Of a DNA stretch of 64,000 bases, positions 5,001 through 40,604 are shown in pieces. Position 1 is the first letter of the stretch. Every line of letters begins with the position of its first letter. The stretch is from an uncultured bacterium (GTDB lineage: Bacteria > Eisenbacteria > RBG-16-71-46 > CAIMUX01 > VGJL01). The stretch is from NCBI GenBank assembly GCA_964575675.1, contig CAZNRY010000002.1, forward strand, positions 2,187-66,186, read 5' to 3'. Below the pieces are notes generated by a model that was not told the DNA's origin, did no database searches, and worked only from the letters and a program-made list of their open reading frames with translations. The position numbers and the translations under genes were made by a program.

Positions 5001-5043
5001 GCGATTGCATCCGGCCAGCCTCCGCGTTGAAAATAGAAGGTTA

Positions 5044-5059
5044 GACTGACCGGTCAGTC
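5044..5059. promoter_or_regulatory. Perfect 16-bp palindrome GACTGACCGGTCAGTC. It is a candidate operator immediately upstream of the heme operon.
   Basis: Seen directly in the sequence. It lies ~20-40 nt upstream of the first heme-operon start (5078/5099) and the RBS AAGGAGGG. Its size and symmetry are typical of a TetR-family operator. Confidence 0.45.
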
Positions 5060-5077
5060 AGATCGGTCAAGGAGGGA

Positions 5078-15420: not shown

Positions 15421-15422
15421 CG

Positions 15423-16811
15423 GTGGCGGAAGTCGTCGTGATCGGCGGCGGGATCGCCGGCCTTGCCTGCGCCGATGAAATCCTCCGGCGCGACCCGGAA
15501 GGATCGCTCCTACTCGTGGAGGCGCAGGAACGGCTCGGAGGGAACATCCGAACCTCGCGCGAAGAGGGATTCACCCTCGAGTGGGGCGTGAACGGCTTTC
15601 TGGACAGCGTTGCCGAAACCCTCGAGCTCGTGGAGCGGATCGGACTGGCGGAGGATCTCCTCCCGGCGGGGGACTCCGCCGGGAAGCGCTTCATCTACCG
15701 GGGGGGGAGGCTGCGAGAAATCCCTCTTCACCCCCTTCGCTTCTTCGGCTCCGATCTCTTGAGCCTCGGCGGCCGGCTTCGAATCCTCGGCGAGCCTTTC
15801 GCCTCGGCCCGCAGCGGGGAGGACGAGAGCGTGTTTTCTTTCGCGGCGAGGAGGATCGGGCGCGAGGCTGCGGAGATACTTGTAGATTCGATGGTTTCCG
15901 GTGTCTACGCGGGAAACGCGCGGCAGCTGTCGCTCATGGCGACCTTCCCCAAGATGGCCGAGATGGAGAGAGAGCACGGGAGCCTCGTGCGGGCGCTCTT
16001 CGCGCGGAGGCGCGAGGCGCGCCGGAAGGACCGGAGGGGGGGAGGGCCCGCGGGACCGGCAGGGACGCTGACCTCCTTTCGCCGGGGGATGCAGGTTCTG
16101 ACGGAGACGCTGGGCAAGAGGATTGGGCCGTCGCGGATTCGCCTGGGCGCGCCGGTTAGCGAGGTAGCCCGGCGTGGATCGGGGTATCGGATCGCCTTCG
16201 ATGGGCCGGACGGGGCCGTCGAGGCCGAGCGCCTGGTCGTTGCGGTTCCTGCCCGAGCCGCAGCGCAGTTCCTTCAAGGGATGGATCCGGGGCTCTGCGA
16301 GCCGCTCAGGGAGATCGGGTACGCCGGCCTCGCCGTCGTGGCCCTCGGCTACAAGTCGAATGAGTTGCCGCTCGAACCTCGCGGGTTCGGGTTCCTGACG
16401 CCGAGGGGTCAGGGGCTGCGCATTCTCGGCTGTCTGTGGGACTCGAGCGTCTTTGGAGATCGGGCGCCGGCGGGACGGACCTTGCTCCGTGCGATGATCG
16501 GGGGCGCCCATGACCCGGATGCGGCAGGGCTGGACGACGGCGCCCTTATCGAGATCGTCCTCCGCGACATCCGCGCGAGCATGAAGATCGAGGCCAGTCC
16601 TCGCCTCGTCCGGGTTTTCCGCCATCCCCTCGGTATTCCTCAATACACGATCGGGCACCCGGCGCGCCTGCGGGCGATCGACGCTGCGGTTGAGCGGCAT
16701 CCTGGCCTGGCCCTGGTCGGAAACTCCTATCGGGGGATCGCGGTGAATAGCTGCGTCAAAGAGGCAGCCGAGCTGGGAGCGCGTTGGAACCCTCCGGCGT
16801 CGCAGTCCTAG
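15423..16811 (+). CDS. hemY: Protoporphyrinogen (or coproporphyrinogen) oxidase, FAD-dependent HemY/PgoX family.
   Basis: FAD dinucleotide fold VVVIGGGIAGLACA, EAQERLGGNIRT. GTG start immediately after the hemH stop. Confidence 0.8.
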   Translation: MAEVVVIGGGIAGLACADEILRRDPEGSLLLVEAQERLGGNIRTSREEGFTLEWGVNGFLDSVAETLELVERIGLAEDLLPAGDSAGKRFIYRGGRLREIPLHPLRFFGSDLLSLGGRLRILGEPFASARSGEDESVFSFAARRIGREAAEILVDSMVSGVYAGNARQLSLMATFPKMAEMEREHGSLVRALFARRREARRKDRRGGGPAGPAGTLTSFRRGMQVLTETLGKRIGPSRIRLGAPVSEVARRGSGYRIAFDGPDGAVEAERLVVAVPARAAAQFLQGMDPGLCEPLREIGYAGLAVVALGYKSNELPLEPRGFGFLTPRGQGLRILGCLWDSSVFGDRAPAGRTLLRAMIGGAHDPDAAGLDDGALIEIVLRDIRASMKIEASPRLVRVFRHPLGIPQYTIGHPARLRAIDAAVERHPGLALVGNSYRGIAVNSCVKEAAELGARWNPPASQS

Positions 16812-24345: not shown

Positions 24346-24490
24346 CGATCCTCCGATTGGACAATATCTTGGTGGAGGATACAGGAGAGCAGGCGGAAGC
24401 GCAAAGCGACTTGCCCGCGTTCTCTTCTTTTCGCTAACCTGCTGAAGGCTTTCCGCACTCGACGACTGGCTCTGGGAAGGGAGGTTGGTG

Positions 24491-26887
24491 ATGACGACGA
24501 ACGCCAGCGGCCTTCACGCGCAAACCATGGGATTCGCTCCCCGGCGAGCGATCTATGTCCCGGTGACCGAGGAGCTCAATGCCGGGCGGGTTCCGGGTCG
24601 GGCGCCCGATGAGGAGCTGATCGCGGACCTCGAGCGCTACGATCTGCTGTACCGGACGCTCTGCGGGGTTCTCTACAACTTCGTTCCGACATCGGGACAT
24701 CCCGGGGGAAGCATCTCCTCGGGACGGATCGTCGCCGCGCTTCTCTTCGCACTCCTCGACTACGATTTCAGCGAACCCGACGAGCCGGCGAACGACCTCC
24801 TCGTTTACGCGGCTGGACACAAGGCGATGGGGCTCTATGCGATGTGGGCGCTCCGCAACGAGGTCGTTCGGGTGGGGGCGAACGGTCTGCTACCGGCGAG
24901 CGTCAAGTACCAGCTCCGCCTCGAGGATTTGCTCGGCTTCCGGCGCAACCCGACCAGCAAGACCCCTCTCTTCCGGGAGTACGCGGCGAAAGCACTCGAT
25001 GGGCATCCGACCCCTACGACCCCCGGCGTGCGCATCGCGACCGGCGCCTCGGGCGTTGGGGTCCCGGCTGGAATCGGCCTTGCGTTCGGGATGCTCGATT
25101 CCTTCGGACCCGATGACGCTCCCCACGTCCACCTTCTCGAGGGGGAAGGGGGAATGACGCCCGGACGCGTTTCGGAAGCGCTTGCGACCGCTGCGACGGC
25201 GGGGCTCTTGAACGTGTTCCTCCACGTCGACTGGAACCAGGCCAGCATCGACTCCAACCGCGTGTGCCGCGAGGGGGAGAAGCCGGGCGACTACGTACAG
25301 TGGAATCCGATGGAGATGGCGTACCTCCACGACTGGAATGTCTACCGGGTCGATGACGGAAGCGACATCCGGCAGATCCTGGCCGGGGTCGAGCTGGCCC
25401 GGCAGCACCCGAACGACCAGCCGACGGCGATCGTCTACCGCACCGTCAAGGGCTGGCGGTACGGGATCGAGGGGCGCGCCTCGCACGGCGCGGGGCACAA
25501 GTTCTGCTCCGATGAGTACTACGTCTCGCTGAAGGAGTTCGAGGATCGCTTCGACCTGAGGTTCCCGCGTTTCGACGGGAACAAGGCGCCTGAGGCCTTG
25601 GAGCGCACGTTCTGGGACACGCTCCTTGTGTTCCGGCAGGTGATCGAGCGCGAGGGGTTCGTTCCCCGGCTCGCCGCCCGTATCGGAGAGCGCCGCGAGA
25701 ACCTGAAGCGCCAAGGGCGCGCCATGCGGGCGGATCGCCCCGATCTCTCGGCGCTCTACGGCCCGGCCATTCGCGCCGACCAGGTTCCCGACGAGCTCGC
25801 GCTGAAGCCGGGGACGGAAGCCACGCTTCGCGCGGCCCTCGGAGATGCCCTCGGGTACGTCAATCGCGCGACGAGGGGCGGCATCATCGCGGCCGCTGCA
25901 GACCTTCTCGGTTCGACGAGCGTCTCGAACATCGGCAAGGGGTTTCCGGAAGGGTTCTACCAGGCCCGAACGAACGCGGGTTCGCGCCTCGTCGCCTGCG
26001 GGGGAATCTGCGAGGACTGCATCGGCGCCTTCCTGTCCGGGCTGTCGAGCTATGGACAGCACATCGGCGTGGGCTCCTCCTACGCGGCGTTCATCGCAGC
26101 GCTGCAACACATCGCGTCACGCCTCCACGGGATCGGCCAGCAAGCCCGGCACGAGCTGTCGGGCGATCCGAGGCGAACCTTCGTTATGGTCTGTGCGCAT
26201 GCCGGCCTCAAGACCGGGGAGGACGGTCCCACGCATGCGGACCCGCAGGCGCTGCAGCTCCTCCAGGAGAACTTTCCGCCCGAGACCTGCATCACCCTCA
26301 CGCCCTGGGAGCCCGCCGAGTTGTGGCCGCTCACGATCGCAGCTTTGAAGGCTCGCCCGGCGGTCCTTGCCCCCTTCGTGACGCGCCCCAACGAGAAGGT
26401 CCCCCACCGTGGCGCGCTCGGGCTGCCTCCGGCGACCGAGTCGATCAAGGGCGTCTATGCTCTGCGGACTGCCGACGCGAACGCGCAGCCGTACCATGGG
26501 ACGATCGTTCTTCAGGAAAGCGGCGTCGTTTATGCCTTCGTCGACGAGGTTCTTCCGAGGCTGCACAAGGACGGGCTGAGGATGAACATCTACCTCGTGA
26601 CGAGCGCGGAGCTGTTTGCGGCCCTCCCGGCCGAGGAGAGGCGCCGGATCTTCCACCCCGATCGGGCGCGGGAGTCGATGGGGATCACCGGCTTCACGAT
26701 GCCGACGCTGTACCGGTGGGTCGCATCCGAGAAGGGGAGGGAGCTGTCCCTCCACGCCTTCTCGCGCGGACGCTACCCGGGGAGCGGACAGGCGCAGATG
26801 GTGATGGAGGAGGCGGGGCTCGACGGGGAATCGCAATATCAGGCGATCCGCCGCTACGTCGACGTCTTCTCGCAGGTACGGGGGTAG
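24491..26887 (+). CDS. Transketolase-family thiamine-diphosphate enzyme, long (~800 aa) form.
   Basis: TPP-binding N-terminal motif SGHPGGSISSGRIVAALLF and Pyr-domain motif GEDGPTHADPQALQ. Too long and too divergent for canonical Tkt, so the exact function is unassigned. GGAGG lies 7 nt upstream of ATG 24491. Confidence 0.55.
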   Translation: MTTNASGLHAQTMGFAPRRAIYVPVTEELNAGRVPGRAPDEELIADLERYDLLYRTLCGVLYNFVPTSGHPGGSISSGRIVAALLFALLDYDFSEPDEPANDLLVYAAGHKAMGLYAMWALRNEVVRVGANGLLPASVKYQLRLEDLLGFRRNPTSKTPLFREYAAKALDGHPTPTTPGVRIATGASGVGVPAGIGLAFGMLDSFGPDDAPHVHLLEGEGGMTPGRVSEALATAATAGLLNVFLHVDWNQASIDSNRVCREGEKPGDYVQWNPMEMAYLHDWNVYRVDDGSDIRQILAGVELARQHPNDQPTAIVYRTVKGWRYGIEGRASHGAGHKFCSDEYYVSLKEFEDRFDLRFPRFDGNKAPEALERTFWDTLLVFRQVIEREGFVPRLAARIGERRENLKRQGRAMRADRPDLSALYGPAIRADQVPDELALKPGTEATLRAALGDALGYVNRATRGGIIAAAADLLGSTSVSNIGKGFPEGFYQARTNAGSRLVACGGICEDCIGAFLSGLSSYGQHIGVGSSYAAFIAALQHIASRLHGIGQQARHELSGDPRRTFVMVCAHAGLKTGEDGPTHADPQALQLLQENFPPETCITLTPWEPAELWPLTIAALKARPAVLAPFVTRPNEKVPHRGALGLPPATESIKGVYALRTADANAQPYHGTIVLQESGVVYAFVDEVLPRLHKDGLRMNIYLVTSAELFAALPAEERRRIFHPDRARESMGITGFTMPTLYRWVASEKGRELSLHAFSRGRYPGSGQAQMVMEEAGLDGESQYQAIRRYVDVFSQVRG

Positions 26888-26933: not shown

Positions 26934-27209
26934 CTAACGCTTCAAGAGGATCCACGCGCCCGCGGCGAGGAACAGCAGACCCGAGACCCAGCGGATCATC
27001 GCCGGGGGGATCGTCCGGGCCAGGAAGGCTCCGGCCCCGACTGCGATCGCGGAGGCGCAGGTGAGGGCGAGGGCGGCGGCGGCGAAGATCACCCAGGGCG
27101 CATGATGCGCCTGTTCCTTGCCGGCCAGAGCCAAGGCCGCGAGCTGGGTCTTGTCGCCGAGCTCGGCGACGAATATCAGGGCGAACGTCGAGAAGAACAA
27201 GCGCAGCAT
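26934..27209 (-). CDS. UPF0016/GDT1-TMEM165-like single-repeat membrane protein (putative Ca2+/Mn2+ cation transporter half-unit).
   Basis: ~91-95 aa with three TM segments and the family signature E-x-G-D-(K/R)-T (AELGDKTQLA). The track ORF (201 aa) has a spurious N-terminal extension. GGAGG lies 5 nt upstream of the ATG at 27209; an alternative ATG is at 27221. Confidence 0.65.
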   Translation of the reverse strand: MLRLFFSTFALIFVAELGDKTQLAALALAGKEQAHHAPWVIFAAAALALTCASAIAVGAGAFLARTIPPAMIRWVSGLLFLAAGAWILLKR

Positions 27210-27529
27210 CGGGACCTCCATCGGGAATACCCGGATCGAATGTAACCTCTCCGTCCGGGAGATGCGACCTTGCCGGGCGGGCCCCGGAGATTGAACCTTG
27301 ATCCCGTCCTCGGCCGGCCGTACCCTTCCACCGCAGGGAAGAAACCTGCGCCCGAGGAGTCGGCATGATGGGGAGGTGGCATGGGTAGGAAGCGGACCTG
27401 CCGAACGCGTCGCATGAGGCGCCCATCCTCCGATCCAGACCCTGCCATCGTTGCTCCCCCGCTCCCTTTCTTCCGCCAGCCGATTGATGTTCTCCAGGCT
27501 CGCTTCCGTCGGTCTCACTCCAAACACTG

Positions 27530-28702
27530 ATGAGGGCATCGCCGATGAGACGGATCGCGTTTCTGATTCTCCTGCCGCCCATGCTCTCGATCTCCGTCGC
27601 CCGGGCTCAGCCTCCCCCCGGCGATCCTGGCGCAGGAGGCGTTTCCCCGCCGACCAATGTCGCCGCCGTCGATACGCCGAACGACGGCGGGGGGAGCATC
27701 ACGCTCGCGTGGCGAGGGCCGTCCGGCGCGGCAGGCTATCGCATTGAGCGAGCCGAGGGGCAGGAAGGCTTCGACTCCCTCGACGTCGTGGCGGCGAGGG
27801 CCGCGGGCTATGCGGACGACAAGGCGGAGGACGGCAAGGAGTACCGTTACCGCGTTGTTGCGCTGGGGCCGGCGGGGGGGGAGGCGGCATCTTCCCCCAC
27901 CGGAGCGATCCATAGCCGGCCTCAGTGGTTCAACGGCTACCTGACCGGCGTCGCGATCGCCCTTTTGGTGCTCGCCGGGTTGATCCTCTGGTTTATCCGA
28001 AAGGCGAAACAGGGGATCCAGCTCTACATCCGTCGGATCGCCGGTCTCGAGGCTGTTGACGAGGCCGTGGGACGCGCGACCGAGATGGGGCGCCCCCTCC
28101 TCTACGTCCCGGGGACCGGCTACATCGAGTACATCAGCACCGTCGCCTCGCTCAACCTCTTGGGCGAGGTCGCGAAGAAGACGGCCGAGTATGGGACGTC
28201 GATCCGCGTCCCGCTGCGGGATCCGATCGTTTTCACCGTGTGCCGGGAAGTCGTGAAGGGCGCGTACATGGCGGCGGGCCGACCCGATGCCTTCGAGTCC
28301 GACAGCGTCTTCTTCCTGGTGGAGAACGCGCTGGCCTACGCGGGGGCTGTGAGCGGGATCATCGTCCGCGAGCGGCCGGCGGTGAACTTCTTCATGGGCT
28401 ACTTCGGCGGCGAGTCCCTGATCCTTGCCGAGACCGGCGCCTCGACCGGCGCGATCCAGATCGCGGGGACCGATCAGACGACCCAGCTGCCATTCTTCGT
28501 CGTGGCCTGCGATTACACCCTGATCGGCGAGGAGCTGTACGCGGCCTCCGCCTACATCTCGCGCGAGCCTCTGATGCTGGGGGCATTGAAGGGTCAGGAC
28601 TACAGCAAGTTCATCATCTTCACCCTTCTGATCGTGGGAACGCTGATCTCGCTCGTTGCGGGGATCGACGCGGGTCGGATCCTCTCGACGTCCGGGCGCT
28701 AG
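27530..28702 (+). CDS. Membrane protein with signal peptide, extracytoplasmic FN3-like domain, TM helix, ~220-aa domain of unknown function, and C-terminal TM helix. First gene of a four-gene operon.
   Basis: Signal peptide IAFLILLPPMLSISVARAQ. FN3-like segment ITLAWRGPSGAAGYRIERAEG...EYRYRVVALG. TM segments LTGVAIALLVLAGLILWFI and FIIFTLLIVGTLISLVAGI. No recognised catalytic motif. Confidence 0.6.
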   Translation: MRASPMRRIAFLILLPPMLSISVARAQPPPGDPGAGGVSPPTNVAAVDTPNDGGGSITLAWRGPSGAAGYRIERAEGQEGFDSLDVVAARAAGYADDKAEDGKEYRYRVVALGPAGGEAASSPTGAIHSRPQWFNGYLTGVAIALLVLAGLILWFIRKAKQGIQLYIRRIAGLEAVDEAVGRATEMGRPLLYVPGTGYIEYISTVASLNLLGEVAKKTAEYGTSIRVPLRDPIVFTVCREVVKGAYMAAGRPDAFESDSVFFLVENALAYAGAVSGIIVRERPAVNFFMGYFGGESLILAETGASTGAIQIAGTDQTTQLPFFVVACDYTLIGEELYAASAYISREPLMLGALKGQDYSKFIIFTLLIVGTLISLVAGIDAGRILSTSGR

Positions 28703-28714
28703 GGGAGAACAACG

Positions 28715-29374
28715 ATGCGCGAGAAGCTGCCGCTGGCGCTCCTGATCATCATGGGAATCCTCGGGATCACCGGGCGATTCATCCCTCACCCGGGTGCGGA
28801 GGCGTTCAACGATTACCTGCGCAACAGCGTGCTGCGGATCGTCGGATCGTTCGCCCTGATTCTCGGGCTGGGGAACTTACTCCTGAGCCACACAAACCGG
28901 ATCAAGCGAAAGGCGCAGAACTGGCGGCAATCGTACACGGTGATCATCTCCTTCGTCGTCGTCGCCGTGATCGGCGTCTTCGGTGGTCCGACGGGGGCGG
29001 GGCCGATGCCAACGAAGATCTTCGGCTTCCCCTTCGACTTGACCACGCTCTACAACAAGCTCCTGACGCCGCTGGGGGCGACCTTGTTCGCCCTGCTCGC
29101 TTTCTACATGGCTTCCGCGGCCTACCGCTCATTCCGGGCGAAGACCGCGATGGCGGCGCTGCTGCTGGGGTCGGCCTTCATTGTGATGCTGGGCCAGGTC
29201 CCCGTGGGCGAGCTCATCTCGCCCTACTTCCCGAAGCTGAGCAGCTGGCTGATGCAGGTTCCGAACACCGCGTCGAAGCGCGGAATCGATGTCGGCGTCA
29301 CCCTGGCCGCGACCGGCACGCTGCTAAAGATCCTCACGGGGGTTGAGCGGAGCTGGATGGGAGGTGGCAAGTGA
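28715..29374 (+). CDS. Polytopic membrane protein of unknown function (operon gene 2).
   Basis: 219 aa with ~6 hydrophobic segments; no known motif. Separated by 12 nt from gene 1 and overlapping gene 3 by 4 nt. Confidence 0.55.
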   Translation: MREKLPLALLIIMGILGITGRFIPHPGAEAFNDYLRNSVLRIVGSFALILGLGNLLLSHTNRIKRKAQNWRQSYTVIISFVVVAVIGVFGGPTGAGPMPTKIFGFPFDLTTLYNKLLTPLGATLFALLAFYMASAAYRSFRAKTAMAALLLGSAFIVMLGQVPVGELISPYFPKLSSWLMQVPNTASKRGIDVGVTLAATGTLLKILTGVERSWMGGGK

Positions 29375-30237
29375 ACTTCGATCGGCTGATGCGGATCGAT
29401 CGGAGGATCATCTTCCTCTTCACGGCCATCGTGATCATCGTGCCCCTGCTGATCCCGATGGATCTCCCGATGGGGGTGCAGAAGCCCACACAGCGCTTCT
29501 TCGACACGGTTAACGCCGTCGATCCGAAAGAGCAATGCGTCCTGATCGCAACCGACTACGTGCCCCAGACCGAAGCCGAGAACCAGCCGATGGCGATCGT
29601 GCTCATGCGCCACGCCTTCGCCGCGAGGATCCCGGTTCTGCTCGCCGCTATGTACATCGAGGGGGCGGGGCTCGCGCTGGACGCGATGAACCGCACGATG
29701 GACGAGTTCAACGCCAGGGCCGCTTCGTCGGCGGACAGCATCAAGTACGGACGCGACATTGTCTACCTCGGGTGGCAGCCGCCCCCCATCGTGCCGATTC
29801 TGGGCATGGGGCGCAGCATTACGGCCGTCTATCCGGTCGACTGGTACGGCAGGAACACGCTGGGCTATCCGCTCATGAAGCGGATCAAGAACTACAACGA
29901 TGTCGGGATCGTCTGCTCGATCTCGGGCGGATCGATGCCGCTCTCCTTCGTGCAGTACGCGCAGGCGAAGTACGGGGTGAAGGTCGGGGCGGGTGTGACG
30001 GCCGTGAGCGCCCCAGATTACTACCCGTATTTCGAAACCGGGCAGTTCTCCGGCATGTTGGGCGGGATGAAGGGCGCCGCGGAGTACGAGTACCTAGTGG
30101 AGAAGCACTTCGGCGTGGGCGGACGCAAGCGGGCCACGGAGGGGATGGGGGCGCAATCTACCGCGCACATCATGATCATCGTCTTCGTCATCATCGGCAA
30201 CATCGCCTACTTCGCGGGAAGGAGGAGGGCGAAGTGA
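29371..30237 (+). CDS. Bitopic membrane-anchored protein of unknown function (operon gene 3).
   Basis: 288 aa with an N-terminal TM (IIFLFTAIVIIVPLLI) and a C-terminal TM (IMIIVFVIIGNIAYFAG). The GTG start overlaps gene 2's stop, and its own stop overlaps the gene 4 start. Confidence 0.55.
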   Translation: MNFDRLMRIDRRIIFLFTAIVIIVPLLIPMDLPMGVQKPTQRFFDTVNAVDPKEQCVLIATDYVPQTEAENQPMAIVLMRHAFAARIPVLLAAMYIEGAGLALDAMNRTMDEFNARAASSADSIKYGRDIVYLGWQPPPIVPILGMGRSITAVYPVDWYGRNTLGYPLMKRIKNYNDVGIVCSISGGSMPLSFVQYAQAKYGVKVGAGVTAVSAPDYYPYFETGQFSGMLGGMKGAAEYEYLVEKHFGVGGRKRATEGMGAQSTAHIMIIVFVIIGNIAYFAGRRRAK

Positions 30238-30923
30238 ACATCACACCCGAGGTCCTCTGGATCTGGATCGGGGCGTTCCTGACGCTCTCCGTATTTTCCT
30301 TCCTGTACAAGGACAACCCGTTCTATCGATTCGCCGAACACCTCTTCGTCGGGGCCTCCAACGGCTGGACGGTCGGCTTCTACTGGCACCGGGTCCTGAT
30401 GCCGATCCTTTTCAGGCCACTGGGGCAGGCGTTCAAGACCGCCGGGACGGAGGGGCTCTCGGGCCAGCTCTTCAATCCCTACGCCCCCGCCAACTTCATC
30501 CTGATCGTGCCGTTCTTGATCGGGCTCCTCTACTTCATGAGGTTCGTGCCCAAGGGCGGATGGTTGGTCCGCTTTCCGATCGGCATCTTCATGGGCTACT
30601 ACACCGGTCTGGCGATCCCCGCGGCGTTCGAGGGGGCTCTGTTCCCGCAACTGAAGGGAACGATCGTCACGCGCGCGAGCTTCGCGGATCCGCTCTCCGG
30701 GGTGTGGGCGGTGCTCGTCCTGATCGGGGTGGTCAGCACGCTCGTCTACTTCTTCTTCTCGAAGGAGCACAAGGGGATCGTGAAGCTCGGCGCGAAGACG
30801 GGGATCGTCTATATCATGCTCGGCTTCGGCGCCTCCTTCGGCTTCACGGTGATGGCGCGCGTCTCCCTCGTGATCGGCCGATTCGTCTTCCTGCTAAGGG
30901 ATTGGCTCCACCTGATCACCTGA
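30234..30923 (+). CDS. Polytopic membrane protein of unknown function (operon gene 4).
   Basis: 229 aa with ~6 TM segments; the GTG start overlaps gene 3's stop. Confidence 0.55.
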   Translation: MNITPEVLWIWIGAFLTLSVFSFLYKDNPFYRFAEHLFVGASNGWTVGFYWHRVLMPILFRPLGQAFKTAGTEGLSGQLFNPYAPANFILIVPFLIGLLYFMRFVPKGGWLVRFPIGIFMGYYTGLAIPAAFEGALFPQLKGTIVTRASFADPLSGVWAVLVLIGVVSTLVYFFFSKEHKGIVKLGAKTGIVYIMLGFGASFGFTVMARVSLVIGRFVFLLRDWLHLIT

Positions 30924-30998: not shown

Positions 30999-31334
30999 AT
31001 GAAGAGGATGGTGAGCGAGCCGATCGATCCCGAAGCCGGAAGTTTCGCCGCGGGCGCAATGGCCTCCGGGGTCCCGGGTCTTCCGGCGGCGTTCGTCTGG
31101 CGCGGTTCGCCTCGACAGGTGCTCGCCTGCGAGCGCGCTTGGAAGGGCCTGCGGTCCGAGGCTTCGAGCGGCGAACTCTATCTGAGGCGCCACTACTACG
31201 AACTTGAGATGGACGACGGAGCACGCTGGGTCGTCTATTGCCTGCGCCAATCCTCGAGCGCGAAGGGCGGGCGCCATCGTTGGTACCTCTACACGATTGA
31301 GGATAAGAGCGACGCGAAGGGGGAGGGACGGTGA
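30999..31334 (+). CDS. Small hypothetical protein (111 aa) translationally coupled to the downstream flavoprotein.
   Basis: Non-repetitive composition (YLRRHYYELEMDDGARWVVYCLRQ). Its stop overlaps the GTG start of the next gene (GTGA). Confidence 0.45.
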   Translation: MKRMVSEPIDPEAGSFAAGAMASGVPGLPAAFVWRGSPRQVLACERAWKGLRSEASSGELYLRRHYYELEMDDGARWVVYCLRQSSSAKGGRHRWYLYTIEDKSDAKGEGR

Positions 31335-32800
31335 TCGGAAATCCGATAATCGGCGGGGTGCAGCTTGAGGAGAGTGATGCGTGGGACATCGCCGTCGTTG
31401 GCGCCGGGGCGGCCGGCCTCGCAGCGGCGATCTTCGCCGCGGAGGAGTCGGGTCGACTCGTAGCAGACGGCCGGCCGCGGCCGCGGATCCTCGTTCTCGA
31501 CGGCGCGGAGAAACTCGGGGCGAAGATCCTGGTCTCGGGCGGCGGGCGGTGCAACGTGACGAACGAGGAGATCCGGCCCCAGGATTTCAATGGCAACCAG
31601 CCGTTCATACGCAACGTCCTCGCCGCCTTCGGGGTCGCCGAGACGGTGGGGTGGTTCGAGTCGCTGGGAATCCGCCTCGTGCGCGAGGAGACGGGGAAGA
31701 TGTTCCCCGCCAAGGGCGGCGCGAAGGCGGTTCTCGAAGCCCTGACGAAGGGTTGCCAGGAGGCCGGAACGACGATTCTCACCGAGCATCGTGTTCGGGA
31801 GGTGTCGATCCCACCGTGCGAGGAGGCGTCTGGCGTTGACGCGGACGCCGGTGCAGAGGGAGAAGGGGAGAAGGCGAGCCCCAGGGGGGCAGTGCGTCCG
31901 CCGGCCGGCTTCATTCTCAGGCACGATCGAGGCGCTTTCCGGGCGCGTTGCGTCATTCTCGCCACGGGCGGCCGCTCGATTCCCAAGAGCGGAAGTGACG
32001 GGGAGGGTTGGGAGATCGCAGGGCGCCTCGGTCACTCCGTTACGGCAACCCATCCGGCCCTGGTTCCTCTCCTCTTCGATGCGGGGATGTTTCACGGGAC
32101 GCTCTCTGGCGTGTCCCAGCCCGCCGAGCTCTCGACCTACCTTCGCGGCAAGCGGGTCGACCGGAGGACGGGGAGCCTGCTCTGGACCCACTTTGGAATC
32201 AGCGGGCCGGTTGTTCTCGATGCGAGCCGGCACTGGATCGCGGCCAAGGCCCAGGACCCGGGAGCGGAGTTGCGCTGCAACTTCCTGCCGGGATGGGATG
32301 CGGAACGTCTGGATCGATGGCTGGTCCGGCGCGTGGCGTCGACGTCATGGCGGTCGGTCGTCCGCGTCCTCTCCGACCTGCTCCCGGAACGTGCCGTGCG
32401 CGCGCATCTGGGGGCGGGCGGCATTGCCGCGTCCATGCCGATCGGTGAGGTGAGGCGCGAGGTGAGGCGGCAGCTCGTCGCCGGGCTCGTCGATTTCACC
32501 TTCCCGGTGATCGGGGATCGCGGATGGAACTTCGCCGAGGTGACGGCCGGCGGGGTTCCGCTGAACGAAATCGACTACCGAACAATGGGATCGCGGAAGG
32601 CGCCGAGGCTCTTCCTCGTCGGCGAGATGCTCGACTGCGACGGGCGGATCGGGGGATTCAACTTCCAGTGGGCATGGGCGAGCGGGTATCTCGCGGGGAG
32701 GGCGGCAGCTCGGGATGTTCGACCGCTCCTCGGGCGGCTCCCAGACGCTCCCGCGCCCCAATCGATTGACGGAACCGAATCGCCGCAACAGGATATCTGA
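31331..32800 (+). CDS. BaiN/YhiN (HI0933)-family flavoprotein (NAD(FAD)-utilising dehydrogenase, aminoacetone-oxidase family).
   Basis: FAD fold DIAVVGAGAAGLAAAIFAAE and family blocks ILVSGGGRCNVTN, KMFPAKGGAKAV. Confidence 0.75.
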   Translation: MIGNPIIGGVQLEESDAWDIAVVGAGAAGLAAAIFAAEESGRLVADGRPRPRILVLDGAEKLGAKILVSGGGRCNVTNEEIRPQDFNGNQPFIRNVLAAFGVAETVGWFESLGIRLVREETGKMFPAKGGAKAVLEALTKGCQEAGTTILTEHRVREVSIPPCEEASGVDADAGAEGEGEKASPRGAVRPPAGFILRHDRGAFRARCVILATGGRSIPKSGSDGEGWEIAGRLGHSVTATHPALVPLLFDAGMFHGTLSGVSQPAELSTYLRGKRVDRRTGSLLWTHFGISGPVVLDASRHWIAAKAQDPGAELRCNFLPGWDAERLDRWLVRRVASTSWRSVVRVLSDLLPERAVRAHLGAGGIAASMPIGEVRREVRRQLVAGLVDFTFPVIGDRGWNFAEVTAGGVPLNEIDYRTMGSRKAPRLFLVGEMLDCDGRIGGFNFQWAWASGYLAGRAAARDVRPLLGRLPDAPAPQSIDGTESPQQDI

Positions 32801-32835
32801 TCAGACGATAGGCTCTGGAACCACCTCGGGTTCTT

Positions 32836-32861
32836 GAATACCGTACAAGCGTATGGTATTC
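32836..32861. promoter_or_regulatory. Imperfect palindrome GAATACCGTAC-aagc-GTATGGTATTC overlapping a sigma70-like promoter (TTGAAT-17-TATTCT) directly upstream of dnaE2. It is a candidate SOS/LexA-type operator.
   Basis: 11-bp arms with one mismatch, seen in sequence. -35 TTGAAT at 32834-39 and -10 TATTCT at 32857-62. The GTAC-N4-GTAT core resembles GTAC-type LexA boxes. The position relative to a DNA-damage-inducible polymerase gene supports a regulatory role. Confidence 0.4.
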
Positions 32862-32875
32862 TGGTGATCCGATCC

Positions 32876-35800
32876 ATGGGACTTCAGAGATGCCCGAAAG
32901 GCCCCGGACCGCTTCCCGTTCCCTTGGTCGTCCGGAGCGCATTCTCCCTCGGCCGCGGGGCGAGCGCGAGCGGGGCATTGTTGGCGCGCGCCCGCGGGCA
33001 CGGCTTCGATGCGCTCGCACTGACCGACCGCGACAACTTGTACGGCGCGATCTCCTTCCTCGCGCGCGCGGAGGATGCGGGCCTGCACCCGGTCCTTGGT
33101 GCGGAGGTCACGCCGCGCGCGCCGAATCCCCAGCGTGCGGTTGATCCCCCGTGCGAGGAGGGAATCCGGGGAGGGGGCCGAGGGCCATGCGGTGCACGCG
33201 GGTCGGCTGTTCTGCTGATTCGCGAGCCGGCCGGGTACGCATCCCTCTGTCGGATCTTGACGGCAAGGCGCTTGGCGCCGGGATTCGTCCTCGAGGATGC
33301 CGTTGCGCGGTGGAGTGCGGGGCTCGTCGTTCTCGCGCGCGAAGCGTCGTTGCTCGAACGTCTCCACCCGGCGCTCGCGCCCGGCACCCTCTACGCCGCC
33401 ATCATCCGCCCTGCGCCGAGCATCTCCGACGAGCGGTGCCTACGGGAAGCGGCGCGGCGCCTGGGGCGTCCCCTCCTCGGAACGCTCGACGTCTACTTCG
33501 CAGGAAGAGAGGAGTGGGAGACGCACCGCGTCCTCGCGGCGATCCGGGAGCTCGAGATGGTGACCCGGCTCGATGCCGCGGCGCTTGCGCCGCGCTCGGC
33601 CTATCTTGCAGGCGCGGCTGAGATCTTCGAGCTGTTCGCCGATCAACCGTCGCTGCTCATCGCGGCGCGCGAGTTGGCCTTCTCCTGCCACTTCTCGCGG
33701 GGGGACCTTCCATCCCCTGGAACCCTCTTCCCGAAACTTCCGCTCCCGCCCGGCGAAACGGCCTACGACCGGCTCTACCGAATGACGCAGGAGGGACTGC
33801 GGCGCCGCTATGACCGCGTGACGCGAGAGATCACGCGGCGTCTTGCGTCGGAGCTCGAGCAGATCGACACGATGGGGTTCACGGACTACTTCGTCGTGGT
33901 GGGGGGCATCTGCACGGCGGCGCGCGCGCGGGGGATTCCAACCGTGGGACGCGGCAGCGGGGCGAGCTCGCTCGTCTCCTACCTTCTCGGCATCACGAAT
34001 GTGGACCCGCTTCGCTATCGACTGACCTTCGAACGGTTCTTCCACCGTCTCCGCCGCGACCTGCCGGACCTCGACATCGATCTCTGCTGGCGCCGGCGAG
34101 ACGAGGTGATCCGGCATGTTTATGAGACATACGGCGCCGATCGCGTGGCGATGATCTCGACACACAACCGCTACCAATCGCGCGGCGCGTTTCGTGAAGC
34201 CGGCAAGGCTCTCGGGATGACGGCCGATCAACTCGAGCCCATCGCGCGGGCGATTCCCTCCTTCAGCGATGCGCCTCTGGCCGAGGCTGCCCGCTCGACC
34301 CCCGTCGGACGGCGGTTCGATCTGAGCGAGCCGCCCCTGCCGGAGGTCTTTGCCGCCGGCGACCGGTTGACCGGTCTCCCGCACAGCTTGGGGATCCACT
34401 GCGGGGGAATCGTGATCGGTCCGGGGCCGCTCGATCAGTGGGTGCCGCTCGAGACGGCGACGAAGGGGATCATCGTCACGCAGTACGAGATGCATGCGAT
34501 CGAAGCTGTCGGCCTCGTGAAGATCGATCTGCTCGGCAACCGGGCGATCTCGACGATCGCCGAGACAATCGACGGGATCGCCGGGGCCGGCGATGCGCCG
34601 CCCGATCTGGCGCGGCTGCCCGATCCGGATGCCGCGACGGGCAGGATGCTCGCGCGCGGGGACGCGCTGGGGTGCTTCCAGCTCGAGTCGCCCGGGATGC
34701 GGAATCTCCTGCGGATGCTCGAGACCTCGGATCTGGACGGCACGATCGCGGCCCTGTCACTGATCCGGCCCGGCCCCGCGGGCTCCGGGATGAAGGAGCG
34801 CTTCATCCGCCGGGCGCGCGGTCTCGAGGCGACGAGCTACCTTCATCCCTCGCTCGAACCTCTTCTGGCGACGACCCACGGGATTCTCCTCTACGAGGAG
34901 GACGTGATCTGCGTGGCGAGTGCGATCGGCGGTTTCGACCGCGCCTTGGGAGATCTGCTGCGGCGGGCGATCGCCTCCGCAATGGCGGTGTCTTCGGACC
35001 CGGCGCTTGGGGAGCGCCCCTCGGGCGGCGGGCCGGCGGGTCCCGATGACCCTTGGCGGGGGGGGACGATTCGCGAGATCGAGAACCGCTTCATCGCGTG
35101 CGCGGTGCGAAACGGGGTCGACGCCGACGTGGCGCGGCAGGTGTGGTGCGAGCTGGCCCGGTTCGGCTCGTACGCATTCTGCAAGGCCCACGCTTCGGGC
35201 TACGGCGTTCTCGCCTACCAGACCGCTTACCTGAAGGCGCATCATCCGGGTCCGTTCTACGCGGCCCTTCTGAACAACCACCAAGGGATGTACCCGCTTT
35301 GCGTGCACGTGGCCGACGCGCGCCGGCACGGGCTTCGCTTGGCCCTCCCGTGCGTCCACCGTTCCGCCCCAGAGTGGAGTTGGGAGGGAGGTTCCCTCCG
35401 GTGCGGGCTCGCGCAGGTGAAGGGACTCTCGCGACGCACCCTGGAGGCGATCGCGGCGGAACGCAGGCGCGCCCCCTTCGACGAGATGGACGACTTCATG
35501 TCCCGGACCGGGGCGAGCGCGGCGGAGGCAGTTTCTCTGGTTCTCTGCGGGGCGCTCGACTCGGTCGGTGCGGGGCCCCGCCCGGCGCGACTCTGGCGCC
35601 TGCAATGCCGCGCGCGCGTCTCGGCGCGGGCGCTCGGGCCAACACCGCGGCTGGGCCTGGGCGGTGGGGTGGAGCAGGGCGGAGAGCCCCCGTGGCGCGA
35701 GTTCGAGCTTGAGGAGCGCGTCGCGCACGAGATGGAAACGCTGGACGTCGCGTTGAGCGCGCACCCGGTTGCGCTCGTCGTGCGACGGCTTGCCCGCGCC

Positions 35801-36148
35801 GGGCGCGCCGTCGGAAGGACCCCGGCCGGGCAGCTCCAACGAGAAGGTCCGGCGTCGGTTCTGGGGTGGGCCGCCGCGGCGCGGCGCGTGCGAACGAAAC
35901 GCGGGGAGTCGATGCTCTTCCTGACGCTGGAAGACGAGACGGGCCTGGCCGAGTGCACGCTCTTCCCGAGCGTGTACGCGCGGTACGGACACCTCGTCCG
36001 GGCGGGGGGCGTGCTGCGTGCAACGGGGAAGGTCGAGGCGCCCTACGGAGCCCCGACCCTCAACGCGGCGCGCATCGAGTGCATCGATGCTGGATTTGGC
36101 AGGGCGGCAGATGCGCCGCCCGAGACTAGCGAAGCCGCAGGAGCTTGA
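32876..36148 (+). CDS. dnaE2: Error-prone DNA polymerase DnaE2/ImuC-like (Pol III alpha family, with PHP, polymerase core and OB domains but no tau/beta-binding C-terminal tail).
   Basis: PHP motif ALALTDRDNLYG. Polymerase core blocks FQLESPGMRNLL, LIRPGP, YAFCKAHASGYGVLAYQTAYLKAHHP. A C-terminal OB fold is present. ~1090 aa, the typical DnaE2 length. The start is set at ATG 32876; the track start (TTG 32834) lies inside the promoter/palindrome. Confidence 0.8.
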   Translation: MGLQRCPKGPGPLPVPLVVRSAFSLGRGASASGALLARARGHGFDALALTDRDNLYGAISFLARAEDAGLHPVLGAEVTPRAPNPQRAVDPPCEEGIRGGGRGPCGARGSAVLLIREPAGYASLCRILTARRLAPGFVLEDAVARWSAGLVVLAREASLLERLHPALAPGTLYAAIIRPAPSISDERCLREAARRLGRPLLGTLDVYFAGREEWETHRVLAAIRELEMVTRLDAAALAPRSAYLAGAAEIFELFADQPSLLIAARELAFSCHFSRGDLPSPGTLFPKLPLPPGETAYDRLYRMTQEGLRRRYDRVTREITRRLASELEQIDTMGFTDYFVVVGGICTAARARGIPTVGRGSGASSLVSYLLGITNVDPLRYRLTFERFFHRLRRDLPDLDIDLCWRRRDEVIRHVYETYGADRVAMISTHNRYQSRGAFREAGKALGMTADQLEPIARAIPSFSDAPLAEAARSTPVGRRFDLSEPPLPEVFAAGDRLTGLPHSLGIHCGGIVIGPGPLDQWVPLETATKGIIVTQYEMHAIEAVGLVKIDLLGNRAISTIAETIDGIAGAGDAPPDLARLPDPDAATGRMLARGDALGCFQLESPGMRNLLRMLETSDLDGTIAALSLIRPGPAGSGMKERFIRRARGLEATSYLHPSLEPLLATTHGILLYEEDVICVASAIGGFDRALGDLLRRAIASAMAVSSDPALGERPSGGGPAGPDDPWRGGTIREIENRFIACAVRNGVDADVARQVWCELARFGSYAFCKAHASGYGVLAYQTAYLKAHHPGPFYAALLNNHQGMYPLCVHVADARRHGLRLALPCVHRSAPEWSWEGGSLRCGLAQVKGLSRRTLEAIAAERRRAPFDEMDDFMSRTGASAAEAVSLVLCGALDSVGAGPRPARLWRLQCRARVSARALGPTPRLGLGGGVEQGGEPPWREFELEERVAHEMETLDVALSAHPVALVVRRLARAGRAVGRTPAGQLQREGPASVLGWAAAARRVRTKRGESMLFLTLEDETGLAECTLFPSVYARYGHLVRAGGVLRATGKVEAPYGAPTLNAARIECIDAGFGRAADAPPETSEAAGA

Positions 36149-39100
36149 CGCTTCTTTCGCCGGCGGCGGATCTGAGGCGCGCCCAGTAAACGCCCGCGGG
36201 GGCGGGGCGTCCATCCTCGTCGGTGCCGTCCCAGACCTGCTGTCCCGCGCCGCGGGCGCGCCTGCGGGACGGGAGGAGCGTGCGAACGAGGCGGCCCGAG
36301 ATATCGTAGACCGCTAGATCGCTGTCGCCCGCGCGGGGTAGAGACCAAGAAAGCCCCACGGTCCACGAGAACGGATTGTCGCTCGCCCGGAGGTCGAGGG
36401 CGAGTCTCGGCCCCGAGCGAACTCCCGTCCAGGGGCCGGCGAACTCACCGCCGGCATCCTCGATCCAGTAGAGATAGACGGTTCCCGCGGCCGCGGATGG
36501 GTCGCGGAAGCGGTAGTCGAGCCCGCCAGGGTCGTGGGGAAGAACCGGATCGCGCGAGACGAGAATCGCGTCTGCGCCCGGACGCGGCGAACCGTCGAGA
36601 ACCGTCGGCGCCTCCCTCCAGAGGCGATACGCGCCGCCGGCCCGGTCACTCGGCACGGACCAGCGGAGTTCGAGGGCATCCGGCAGCTCAAAGATCACCC
36701 AGCTCGCGACGGCGACCGGCGTGTAGTCGCCCTCGTAGTGCCAGCTCACCGTTCTGACCCGCACGTCCCAGCTGCGCTGATCCCTGCTGTCGGCGAACGC
36801 GTAACGGATTCGTCCCGCGTCGGCAGCCAGGTTGCCCTGGAGTGTGGCTATCTTCCCCCCAAGAATGCTGACGCTGTAGGGGGCGCCGATCCGGTTGGCG
36901 CGGGCATCGAAGCGCTGCGCGATCACGCGCGCGGAGTCGGCGGAGGTATCCCAGTACGTCACGACGAATCGTCCATCCGGGGCCATCGCCACGCGCGGGT
37001 ACTTCATCCCGGCCGATCCCCCTCCGAGCTGGAAAAACGTTGGTTCATCCGATCGGCCGCCGCCGCTCTTCGCGCTGGGAAGAACGACGAGCAGGCCAAC
37101 GACGCCGCCCCCTGTGTATGGCTCTTCGTCCCAGACGACGACGTAGCGATCGGCCTGGGACGCGACATCGGGATTCGATTGGACGACCGAGCCTCCTTCC
37201 TCAGGGATGCTGATCGGGATGTTTGGCCCGATCTTCGTTCCCGTGGGCCCGATCCTCTGGGCGTAAACGTCAAAGTTGCCCATCCGGTCGTCGAGCCAGG
37301 CGATGACGGTCTCTCCGCCTTCCCCGGAGGAGATGGCGGGGCTGATCTGGGTGGCGCCCGCGTAAGCGCTATCCGCGATGCGGATCGTGTCGCTGTCGGC
37401 CGAGCCATCGACCAGAAAGCGCTGCGCGTAGACGTCCCCGGCGCTGAGCAACGTGCAGGTATCCCACCAGGCCAAGTAGAAGCCGCCGTCCCTCGTGGCC
37501 GCGAAGGCGGGTTGCCCCTGGATGCCCCCGCCGCAGGCGGAGGAGACGAGCGTGTTGCCGCCCACCGGCACGCCGGTCGGATCGTAGATCTGAACCATGA
37601 CCCTCTGGCCGCCGGCGAGAAGCGCCGTCCAGGCTGCGACGAGGGAACCATTCATGGTCGCCCCGAGCGCGGGTCTGTTTCGGATCAAGTCGCGCATGTT
37701 GTCCGCCGGCGCACTGGATGCCCCGCCGCTGATGTCACTGATCCGGAAGGACCCGCCCGCGGGGCGCCCTTCCGCGTCGAGATACGCCCCATAGATCCCC
37801 ATCGTCCCCGAACGGAAGTCCTCCCAAACGACCGCGCCGCGATGATCGGGTAACAAAACGACATCGGGGAATGCCTGGGTCGATGTCCCATCCTTCGGAT
37901 CGAGCGGGGTCGGTGCGCTGAGCGGGTGGCCTTCTGCATCCGCCGTGAGTTGGAAGAGCAACTCCCAACCCTCGCGGGCATCTGACCAGACAAGGCGCGC
38001 GGGCGTTGTGGAGCCGGGTAACAGCGCGAGGTGCCGCGGCGTGAGAGTCTGCCCCGGCGGAGGCGTCGGGTCGTCGACAACGACAATCGACCCGGCCGCG
38101 GTCGAGGGGAGAACCACCTTCCTGGCATGGAAGCGTGCGCTTTGTGCAGGCCCGGCCGTCCAGACGACGAGAACGGAAGTTCCGTCGATCGCAAGCAGCT
38201 CGGGGCCGCGCGGCGTGACGGTCTCCTCTTCGCTCGATATCAAGAAGGATGGCGCCGCGGGGTTCAGATCCGCGTCGAGAAGACGACCGGCGAGGCTGAC
38301 CTCGCCGGAGAGACCTCGTGTCCAGGCGACGAAATAGCCCCCCGTCACACGAACGATTGCCGGCTCCTTCTGGATGACGAGAGGGTCGGATTCGACGATC
38401 CTCGCCTCTGCGATCGCATGGCCGTCCCGATCGAACGCGCGTACTGAGACGCGCGCTGGATCCTGCGAGTCACCCGACCAGGCGACGACCCAACCTGCGG
38501 CCGAAGCGGCCACACGGGGATCGCTCTGCACGTCCTCACCGCCGGGGTCGAGAGAGAAGTTCGAGAGAACCGGTTCGAGGGAAGCGGTGAGGACCTGGCC
38601 CCGCGCCTTCCTGAGCGGGGAGTCTCCTTCCGTCCAGACAATCAGGGCACGATCGCCGGAGACCGCGATGTGGGGAGTCCTCTTGGTGCTGTAGGGACCT
38701 TCCTCGGTCACGACGATCGGGCCAGCGATGATCCCGTCTTGATCGACCAGGGCGGCCCGAACCTCCGGGTGGCCCTCCCGCGAATCGACCCATGTCAGGA
38801 TCGATCGACCGTCGGCAAGCGAGGCGAGGAAGGGCTCGGAGACTTGCTCCGCGTTGACGTCGAAAGAGAAAAGCCCGTAGCCGTCGGTGACCGGCGAGGC
38901 CGGGCCGAGCGGCTCATCCTGAGAGTCGAAGGACCGCACGAAAATCGAACCATACCCCGTGCAGAAGTCGATCCAGGCGGCGGTCCAGGAAGCGTCGGAG
39001 TGAACGGTCGCGGTTCCGTCGCGCTGGTACTCTTGCCCGACCGTCTCCTCGTGGACTCTCCATTCTTCCGGCGGATTCGAAACGGCCGAGGTAGCGAGAA

Positions 39101-39149
39101 TGAACGAGGCCAAGAAGGCAAGGCAGAGGATCGGGCTGAGCGCTCTCAC
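36126..39149 (-). CDS. Large secreted protein (1007 aa) with signal peptide and a T9SS-type (Por_Secre_tail/FlgD-Ig-like) C-terminal sorting domain.
   Basis: N-terminal signal peptide MRALSPILCLAFLASFILATSAVS. C-terminal DLAVYDISGRLVRTL...VWDGTDEDGRPAPAGVYWARLRSAAGERSVKLLRLR matches the T9SS type-A CTD pattern. It converges on and overlaps the dnaE2 3' end by 23 nt. Confidence 0.7.
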   Translation of the reverse strand: MRALSPILCLAFLASFILATSAVSNPPEEWRVHEETVGQEYQRDGTATVHSDASWTAAWIDFCTGYGSIFVRSFDSQDEPLGPASPVTDGYGLFSFDVNAEQVSEPFLASLADGRSILTWVDSREGHPEVRAALVDQDGIIAGPIVVTEEGPYSTKRTPHIAVSGDRALIVWTEGDSPLRKARGQVLTASLEPVLSNFSLDPGGEDVQSDPRVAASAAGWVVAWSGDSQDPARVSVRAFDRDGHAIAEARIVESDPLVIQKEPAIVRVTGGYFVAWTRGLSGEVSLAGRLLDADLNPAAPSFLISSEEETVTPRGPELLAIDGTSVLVVWTAGPAQSARFHARKVVLPSTAAGSIVVVDDPTPPPGQTLTPRHLALLPGSTTPARLVWSDAREGWELLFQLTADAEGHPLSAPTPLDPKDGTSTQAFPDVVLLPDHRGAVVWEDFRSGTMGIYGAYLDAEGRPAGGSFRISDISGGASSAPADNMRDLIRNRPALGATMNGSLVAAWTALLAGGQRVMVQIYDPTGVPVGGNTLVSSACGGGIQGQPAFAATRDGGFYLAWWDTCTLLSAGDVYAQRFLVDGSADSDTIRIADSAYAGATQISPAISSGEGGETVIAWLDDRMGNFDVYAQRIGPTGTKIGPNIPISIPEEGGSVVQSNPDVASQADRYVVVWDEEPYTGGGVVGLLVVLPSAKSGGGRSDEPTFFQLGGGSAGMKYPRVAMAPDGRFVVTYWDTSADSARVIAQRFDARANRIGAPYSVSILGGKIATLQGNLAADAGRIRYAFADSRDQRSWDVRVRTVSWHYEGDYTPVAVASWVIFELPDALELRWSVPSDRAGGAYRLWREAPTVLDGSPRPGADAILVSRDPVLPHDPGGLDYRFRDPSAAAGTVYLYWIEDAGGEFAGPWTGVRSGPRLALDLRASDNPFSWTVGLSWSLPRAGDSDLAVYDISGRLVRTLLPSRRRARGAGQQVWDGTDEDGRPAPAGVYWARLRSAAGERSVKLLRLR

Positions 39150-40058: not shown

Positions 40059-40604
40059 CTAGCCGATCTCGCCGCCGGCCTGCTCCATCGGCTCGTCGCT
40101 CGAGCCGCTGCGGCCTCCCGAGCCCGACCCGGGGGTGATCTCGTTTCCATCACCCTGCCCTGCCGGTAGGCCGCCGGTCGCGCCTGAGTATGAGAACCGC
40201 ATCATCCCGCCCATTGGGCTCTCATTGTTGCTTGCATCGACGGCCGTCACCCTGAAGATGTACTCGGCGCCGTTGGTCCCGGTGACGGTGAGGGTGTTCT
40301 TCAACAGCAGGCCGTCACCACTCAAGCACGTGTATGAATTGCCCCGCAACGGATCGGGGAAGTAGAGATAAACGCGGTAACCGGCCAGATCCGGCTCCGT
40401 GTTCTTGTCCCATGCGAGGGCGAACTTGCCGTGCATCTGCCAGTCGATCCGAGCGCCGTTCGGGGGAGTGGGCGGCGCCTGGTCGATCGTGCCGGGGCCG
40501 AGGGGCGTATCAGAGCTGTTGCTTCCGCAGCCGCACAGCGTGGCGGCCGCGAAGACGACCATCGCCAAGATGGAAAGGCGAATCGGGTGACGGGAATCGA
40601 ACAT
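40059..40604 (-). CDS. Lipoprotein with fibronectin-III-like domain.
   Basis: Start ATG 40604 with GGAGG 8 nt upstream. Lipobox in MFDSRHPIRLSILAMVVFAAATLCGCGS. FN3-like block DLAGYRVYLYFPD...EYIFRVTAVDASNNES. The track ORF (341 aa) has a spurious upstream extension. Confidence 0.7.
   Translation of the reverse strand: MFDSRHPIRLSILAMVVFAAATLCGCGSNSSDTPLGPGTIDQAPPTPPNGARIDWQMHGKFALAWDKNTEPDLAGYRVYLYFPDPLRGNSYTCLSGDGLLLKNTLTVTGTNGAEYIFRVTAVDASNNESPMGGMMRFSYSGATGGLPAGQGDGNEITPGSGSGGRSGSSDEPMEQAGGEIG

Follow-up and report, generated by a model that had tools for sequence, protein, structure and literature searches.

A conserved four-gene DUF6754 block of an uncultured Eisenbacteria bacterium as a candidate membrane module of an ATP-coupled envelope system

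This study concerns a 64,000-nucleotide (nt) stretch of DNA from an uncultured bacterium of the Eisenbacteria (contig CAZNRY010000002.1; the whole analyzed stretch is called the window below), and within it a compact block of four membrane-protein genes, g1 to g4, at positions 27530-30923. We propose that these genes encode the membrane module of a previously undescribed, cross-phylum ATP-coupled transporter or translocase, and we put the probability of this reading at roughly one half. Since the block follows the gene of an actin-fold ATPase in many other phyla, its products are probably the membrane part of an ATP-driven envelope machine. The g1-g4 system is without a known counterpart. Its genes are arranged as follows (aa, amino acids; TM, transmembrane; N-in and N-out, predicted side of the N terminus):

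27530-28702, plus strand: g1, 390 aa, the DUF6754 subunit, recognized by its open reading frame (ORF) and by Pfam PF20539
28715-29374, plus strand: g2, 219 aa, polytopic subunit with ~6 TM helices, N-in, ATG start
29371-30237, plus strand: g3, 288 aa, bitopic subunit of the type TM-alpha/beta domain-TM
30234-30923, plus strand: g4, 229 aa, polytopic subunit with ~6 TM helices, predicted N-out, GTG start

Reading of the sequence places the TAG stop of g1 at its end in 28702 and the ATG of g2 at 28715, with GGGGAG contained in the 12-nt gap. The g2/g3 and g3/g4 junctions are both GTGA start/stop overlaps (29371-29374 and 30234-30237, respectively). The true start of g1 is probably the ATG at 27545 and not the one at 27530, because close homologues of g1 have 385 aa and because GAGGG stands 8 nt before this second ATG. 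A 462-aa ORF in the frame of g4 is an upstream extension; g4 homologues have 227-229 aa and align with 100% coverage. The G+C content is ~66% across the whole window. Homologues of g1 formed at least 8000 clusters at 90% identity, those of g3 and g4 2583 and 5570 clusters at the same identity, and those of g2 1877 clusters at 50% identity. With thousands of homologues for each, g1-g4 are real genes and not chance ORFs. For g1, g3 and g4, the top-ranking homologues carried the name Candidatus Eisenbacteria.

Order and sizes of the four genes were kept in Eisenbacteria relatives (loci L011 and L013), Poribacteria (L003), Planctomycetota (L004 and L005), Armatimonadota (L007 and L009), WS1 (L006) and WOR-3 (L096), and the flanking genes were unrelated among these loci. 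In tblastn searches, the window proteins matched the cluster loci at E values of 1e-30 to 1e-104, again in the same gene order. A Planctomycetota metagenome-assembled genome contained two tandem copies of the whole block with 36-43% identity (L004), and a WOR-3 chromosome (CP070705.1; L096, 582-11362) contained three, with 64-80% pairwise identity. At these two loci, the four genes were duplicated only as a whole block. It is therefore well supported by comparative data that g1-g4 are the four subunits of one stoichiometric membrane complex. An initial annotation of this DNA had proposed such a complex and had made it dependent on synteny in relatives; the conserved order in several phyla bears it out strongly, as does the duplication of the block as a whole. 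Its description of the genes also held: four ORFs, the 12-nt gap, two 4-nt overlaps, and the signal peptide, FN3 domain and TM layout of g1 were found as described.

The proposed coupling to ATP comes from the gene neighborhood in other lineages. In Armatimonadota, WS1 and one Planctomycetota locus, g1 was preceded by two conserved genes, one for a ~600-aa ATPase and one for a ~376-aa protein that we named p376. The order of the full cluster was c11-c9-GlmL-like ATPase-p376-g1-g2-g3-g4. Clustering of the neighborhood ORFs showed that c9 is an orphan protein of ~100 aa (35 loci) and that c11 is a protein with two TM helices and a weak bacterial-PH match (18 loci). An alignment scan of metagenome contigs with p376 yielded at least 347 loci, of which the best 80 were analyzed. 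There, 36 of the 50 loci with enough sequence had g1 immediately after p376, the GlmL-like ATPase gene was upstream of p376 in 46 of 50 loci, and all of g1-g4 were present in 26 of 34 loci. The stop codon of p376 overlapped the start codon of g1 at L007, and a single ATPase/p376 pair stood between two g1-g4 blocks at L031. In the loci lacking g1-g4, no recurrent alternative membrane module was found downstream of p376. Judged by gene order, g1-g4 are in many lineages part of a larger conserved cluster that also encodes an actin-fold ATPase.

The ~600-aa ATPase is a member of the GlmL/MutL family with the actin (ASKHA) fold. It matched Pfam PF13941 at E values of 1e-121 to 5e-123 and the NCBIfam GlmL model at 1e-63, with a score of 216 bits against an equivalog cut-off of 475. 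It exceeds GlmL by a C-terminal region of ~140 aa. Identity between phyla was 77-82%; the motifs DCGSTTTKA, VDIGGATTD and GSGG were nearly invariant, and the phosphate and adenosine motifs of ASKHA proteins were kept. The family is known as GlmL/MutL (PF13941, TIGR01319) for an accessory protein of B12-dependent glutamate mutase. In contrast to those proteins, the upstream ATPase is encoded beside membrane-protein genes and not beside mutase subunits, and it is absent from the window.

For p376 as a whole there was no family assignment and no relative in the PDB. Its N terminus matched barrel-sandwich domains of the RnfC_N, NQRA_N and biotin-lipoyl type, with a best E value of 1.6e-7. Sporadic neighbors in p376 loci were GcvPA/PB, an LplA-like ligase, TatD, a TonB-dependent receptor and an OmpR-type regulator. 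At L032, L036, L038, L050, L067 and L092, the eight-gene cluster was located between or beside gcvPA/gcvPB and an LplA-like lipoate ligase gene, and a TonB-dependent receptor gene often came after it. The GcvPA/PB and LplA-like neighbors prompted the idea that p376 is a lipoylated or biotinylated carrier. These neighbors occurred in only 5-6 loci, and the candidate lysine K94 was found in only 36 of 50 sequences, with A, R, S or G in the others. Because this lysine is not conserved, we rejected p376 as a carrier protein.

The N-terminal domain of p376 also raised the question of a cofactor-poor, distant analogue of Rnf or Na+-NQR, with p376 as the NqrA/RnfC counterpart, g2 and g4 as NqrD/E (RnfA/E) and g3 as NqrC/RnfG. 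The inventory is similar: an RnfC/NqrA-type domain protein, two subunits of ~220 aa with ~6 TM helices each and opposite predicted orientation (g2 and g4), and a subunit in which an N-terminal TM helix is followed by a periplasmic domain (g3). RnfC_N and NQRA_N were matched at 1.6e-7 and 5e-4, respectively, and there were weak matches to the NCBIfam rnfC and nqrA models. However, none of 49 g4 and 50 g2 family members matched the Rnf-Nqr family (PF02508) at E ≤ 1, no relationship between g2 and g4 was detected, and conserved Cys pairs as well as Fe-S or NADH motifs are lacking. In addition, g3 has no SGAT-type flavinylation motif, an RnfD/NqrB-like subunit is absent, barrel-sandwich domains are widespread, and the associated enzyme is an ATPase and not an oxidoreductase. 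We therefore regard an analogue of Rnf or Na+-NQR as very improbable.

Among the four proteins, only g1 matched a known family. Its residues 130-377 matched Pfam PF20539 (DUF6754) with 368.1 bits (cut-off 27; E 2.5e-110; profile positions 2-249 of 257). The protein consists of a signal peptide, an FN3 domain, a TM helix, the alpha/beta domain of DUF6754 and a second TM helix; the AlphaFold2 (AF2) model had a mean predicted local distance difference test (pLDDT) score of 78. The parts of g1 are:

27530-27607, plus strand: Sec-type signal peptide, aa 1-26, VARA|Q, from sequence reading (hydrophobic segment; cleavage site inferred)
27644-27916, plus strand: FN3 ectodomain, aa 39-129, predicted periplasmic
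27935-28009, plus strand: TM helix 1, aa 136-160 (AF2 helix; hydropathy 2.66; K/R-rich on the C-terminal side)
28040-28468, plus strand: Rossmann-like alpha/beta domain of DUF6754, aa 171-313, predicted cytoplasmic (AF2 secondary structure)
28469-28561, plus strand: aa 314-344, TDQTTQLPFFVVACDYTLIGEELYAASAYIS, the segment with the highest conservation and a candidate interface to another subunit or a ligand
28568-28660, plus strand: C-terminal TM helix, aa 347-377 (AF2 helix and hydropathy)

In the AF2 model, the alpha/beta domain has five parallel strands, and invariant polar residues are located at the strand C termini, as in ligand-binding Rossmann folds. Residues R168, G181-E185, G195, E295, E301, Q310, G313 and T314 were invariant across phyla. 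The following segment (aa 315-341) had pLDDT values below 50, yet it is the most conserved sequence of the family (QLPFFVVACDYTLIGEELYAASAY); Q319, P321, F322, F323, C327, D328, G333, E334, E335 and Y342 were invariant within aa 314-344. Low model confidence combined with the highest conservation is a pattern typical of an inter-subunit or ligand interface.

All g1 homologues carried DUF6754. The FN3 domain was matched weakly by Pfam fn3; a profile built from 59 family members matched titin FN3 domains at 2.5e-17, and both the sequence profile and the seven-strand beta-sandwich fold identify it as an FN3 domain. In the first copy of the block at L004, g1 has 295 aa and no ectodomain, and at other loci the N-terminal domains are divergent. 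By this comparison, FN3 is an optional, variable decoration, and the invariant part of g1 is the DUF6754 domain. The view of the initial annotation that the operon is led by an FN3-domain exposed subunit was thus not upheld. A g1 homologue with FN3 and DUF6754 but without adjoining g2-g4 was present at L002 (7944-9068; WOR-3, CP070680.1), where the following gene is on the opposite strand, and at L001. Solo DUF6754 genes therefore exist, and g1 represents the largest of the four families.

The conservation of DUF6754 also bears on a rival explanation, in which g1-g4 form a self-sufficient secondary transporter or channel driven by an ion gradient. In such a transporter g2 and g4 would form the pathway, g1 and g3 would be regulatory or substrate-binding, and the ATPase module would be a lineage-specific accessory (for example, an assembly chaperone) that is not needed here. 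DUF6754, however, is the most conserved part in both cluster types, and every invariant residue is kept in the window protein, suggesting the same partner or ligand everywhere. ATPase and p376 genes adjoin the block in several phyla, including translational coupling, and no known transporter family matches. An autonomous transporter is therefore unlikely in our view, and we favor an ATP-coupled membrane module.

The topology of the complex was inferred from family-wide K/R counts (positive-inside rule) together with hydropathy, by which about six hydrophobic segments are present in each of g2 and g4, and a domain of ~230 aa lies between the two TM helices of g3:

29464-30162, plus strand: g3 domain, aa 32-264, predicted periplasmic, Rossmann-like, between an N-in TM helix and a TM helix with the C terminus in

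Predicted locations are thus outside for FN3, inside for DUF6754, inside for both g3 termini with the domain outside, N-in for g2 and N-out for g4. The predicted cytoplasmic face contains many invariant residues, namely R168, R182, E185, E295, E301, Q310, C327, D328, E334 and E335 in g1, R138 and R141 in g2, and D10, R11 and R12 (DRR motif) in g3. Further invariant residues are D62, E70, D157, T210, Q225, Y239 and E240 in the g3 periplasmic domain and D27, E35, R113, Q139, H179 and R209 in g4. The predicted periplasmic loop between TM3 and TM4 of g2 contains large insertions in many homologues, including WD40 and FG-GAP beta-propellers. Such variation on the periplasmic face, next to an invariant cytoplasmic face, fits a partner in the cytoplasm that is the same throughout and specificities in the periplasm that have diversified.

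Two variations of the block concern g3. An extra g3 paralogue was encoded directly after g4 at L018 (~4995-5834) and at L031 (~14734-15579). At L009 (Candidatus Zipacnadum), a 374-aa right-handed beta-helix (NosD-like) gene was located between g2 and g3 (9808-10932); this was the only locus with an interrupted four-gene block.

Searches for known families gave little beyond DUF6754. PF20539 itself is a domain of unknown function that covers g1 only and neither g2-g4 nor the ATPase module. In single-sequence scans, g2, g3 and g4 had no match in Pfam, NCBIfam or PADLOC, and their family profiles had no sequence match in the PDB. Pfam scans of the 49 g4 and 50 g2 family members gave scattered composition-type matches and nothing consistent. 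The UniRef label 'Prolipoprotein di...' on one g4 homologue was not supported by Pfam. Internal duplication (g1 with g3, g2 with g4) was considered and rejected, as neither BLASTP nor hhalign revealed a relationship in close or broad alignments; the four proteins showed no relatedness to one another. At E ≤ 1, g1-g4 did not match ABC_tran, ABC-2 or ABC_transp_aux, which covers the GldA/F/G type, and no ABC genes adjoining g1-g4 were found. Likewise, g1-g4 had no Pfam or NCBIfam match to the motor of the type IX secretion system (T9SS) and gliding (GldKLMN, PorLM), with neighbors varying by locus, and no PADLOC match to anti-phage defense proteins at E ≤ 1. In the literature collection searched, no paper named DUF6754 or PF13941, and GlmL searches yielded nothing relevant. 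By these comparisons, g1-g4 are unrelated to the known protein families of transport, secretion, respiration and defense. The family scans thus agree with the initial annotation, which saw a translationally coupled membrane-protein unit without recognizable ATPase, transporter, secretion or respiratory signatures.

That annotation had further hinted at a surface or adhesion-linked function, pointing to a likeness between the g1 FN3 domain and a nearby lipoprotein (40059-40604). This likeness was not upheld: Pfam fn3 does not match the lipoprotein, and the two sequences align at a pairwise E of 0.019 over 27 residues, in the region of the F-strand motif of FN3. We considered a broader form of the idea, in which the complex serves the cell surface, adhesion, T9SS or the assembly of envelope polymers, with the export or anchoring of glycans included. 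In favor of it are the periplasmic FN3 and beta-propeller decorations and the beta-helix gene of L009. TonB-dependent receptor genes were near the cluster in about seven loci, genes for T9SS-tail proteins (FlgD_ig, Por_Secre_tail) and PorV were nearby at L011, L095, L096 and in this window, and the g3 domain weakly resembles the halves of GT-B glycosyltransferases. This support is weak and not conserved, and the cluster occurs with unrelated flanks in Planctomycetota, Poribacteria and Armatimonadota, which speaks against a link to adhesion, T9SS or gliding. A role of this kind appears quite unlikely.

Several points weigh against an ATP-coupled membrane module. To our knowledge, members of the GlmL family are known only as accessories to soluble B12-dependent mutases and not as motors of membrane complexes. 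The sequence scans of g2 and g4 found no known transporter fold or motif, and the topology is based on hydropathy and the positive-inside rule only. At E ≤ 0.01, the ATPase, p376, c9 and c11 had no match in the 64-kb window. The ATPase and p376 genes are thus not immediately upstream of g1, and a divergent GDT1-family gene is found there instead. About half of the g1-anchored loci are without the ATPase module nearby (L002, L003, L004, L011, L013 and L096), and the membrane module may work alone in such lineages. In favor of the ATP-coupled reading, one pair of loci suggests that the two modules can also sit at separate sites within one genome. L013 has g1-g4 alone, with ~60% identity to the window proteins, and L050, from the same assembly (FWPV01), has c9, the ATPase and p376 without g1-g4 within 10 kb. 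The tetranucleotide correlation between L013 and L050 was 0.99, compared to 0.77 for a third contig of FWPV01; the assignment of both to one genome is based on composition alone. In the Eisenbacteria genome studied here, the cytoplasmic module is presumably encoded elsewhere.

The complex of g1-g4 would comprise ~16 TM helices and two Rossmann-like domains, one cytoplasmic (DUF6754) and one periplasmic (g3), with variable periplasmic add-ons such as FN3 on g1 here and beta-propellers in g2 elsewhere. In the proposed mechanism, ATPase and p376 would dock on the invariant cytoplasmic surfaces, i.e., the DUF6754 domain of g1, the DRR motif of g3 and the R138/R141 loop of g2, and the docked proteins would drive a conformational change in the g2/g4 membrane core. 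A substrate would thereby be moved or processed, with the g3 domain and the variable FN3 or propeller modules acting on it in the periplasm. GlmL-type proteins accompany B12-dependent mutases, the cofactor-binding subunit of which is a five-stranded Rossmann-like domain. By analogy, the DUF6754 domain could be a client of the ATPase that shares its general architecture with this subunit.

More tentatively, a GlmL-type actin-fold ATPase, and not an ABC, AAA+ or P-type enzyme, might power transport or translocation in a new class of envelope machines, spread over many phyla that are mostly uncultured, in which swappable paralogous membrane modules with differing periplasmic decorations share one cytoplasmic motor. 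A shared energizing module is found in ECF transporters and in TonB-ExbBD; similarly, two to three paralogous g1-g4 blocks, the single ATPase/p376 pair between two blocks at L031 and apparently separate loci for the two modules were found here. Unlike a family relationship, this likeness to ECF, ABC and Ton systems is organizational and without homology, and the ATPase may be shared. In PilM-PilN and GspL-type systems, an actin-fold protein is docked on bitopic inner-membrane proteins; comparably, the cluster encodes an ASKHA-fold protein along with bitopic membrane proteins whose cytoplasmic N termini are short and conserved (for example, the DRR motif of g3). In contrast to them, the cluster lacks pilus and secretion genes, its proteins have no similarity to theirs in sequence, the motifs of its ATPase are intact, and polytopic subunits are present.

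The neighbors of g1-g4 in the window are unrelated genes: a transketolase-like gene, the divergent GDT1-family gene, an HI0933-like flavoprotein gene and a DnaE-type polymerase gene. Side observations on them and on the flanks of L096 are given below:

24485-26887, plus strand: transketolase-like protein of 800 aa, unusually long and divergent; its N-terminal and pyrimidine-binding transketolase domains scored modestly
26934-27236, minus strand: single-repeat GDT1/UPF0016 cation/proton antiporter-family gene of ~100 aa, transcribed away from g1; the 201-aa ORF listed for it is probably over-extended
30999-31334, plus strand: ORF of 111 aa between g4 and the flavoprotein gene, with its stop overlapping the flavoprotein start
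31331-32800: HI0933-like flavoprotein gene
32834-36148: DnaE-type polymerase gene
36126-39149, minus strand: secreted protein of 1007 aa, with a C-terminal FlgD_ig as its only Pfam match

C-terminal tails of the FlgD_ig type are common on secreted proteins of FCB-group bacteria. At L096, the three g1-g4 copies were followed on the opposite strand by genes for a Por_Secre_tail protein and a PorV-like protein.

Members of the g1-g4 families number in the thousands and come from six phyla or more, and three of the four proteins were uncatalogued, the fourth being known only as a DUF. Among the carriers are poorly understood lineages, including Eisenbacteria, WOR-3, Poribacteria, Armatimonadota and WS1. 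The analysis turns this DUF into a defined multi-gene system with a predicted topology, invariant residues and candidate interfaces. The link to the ATPase provides a testable hypothesis of an energy coupling that would be new for membrane complexes, and it points to an additional role of GlmL-family proteins.

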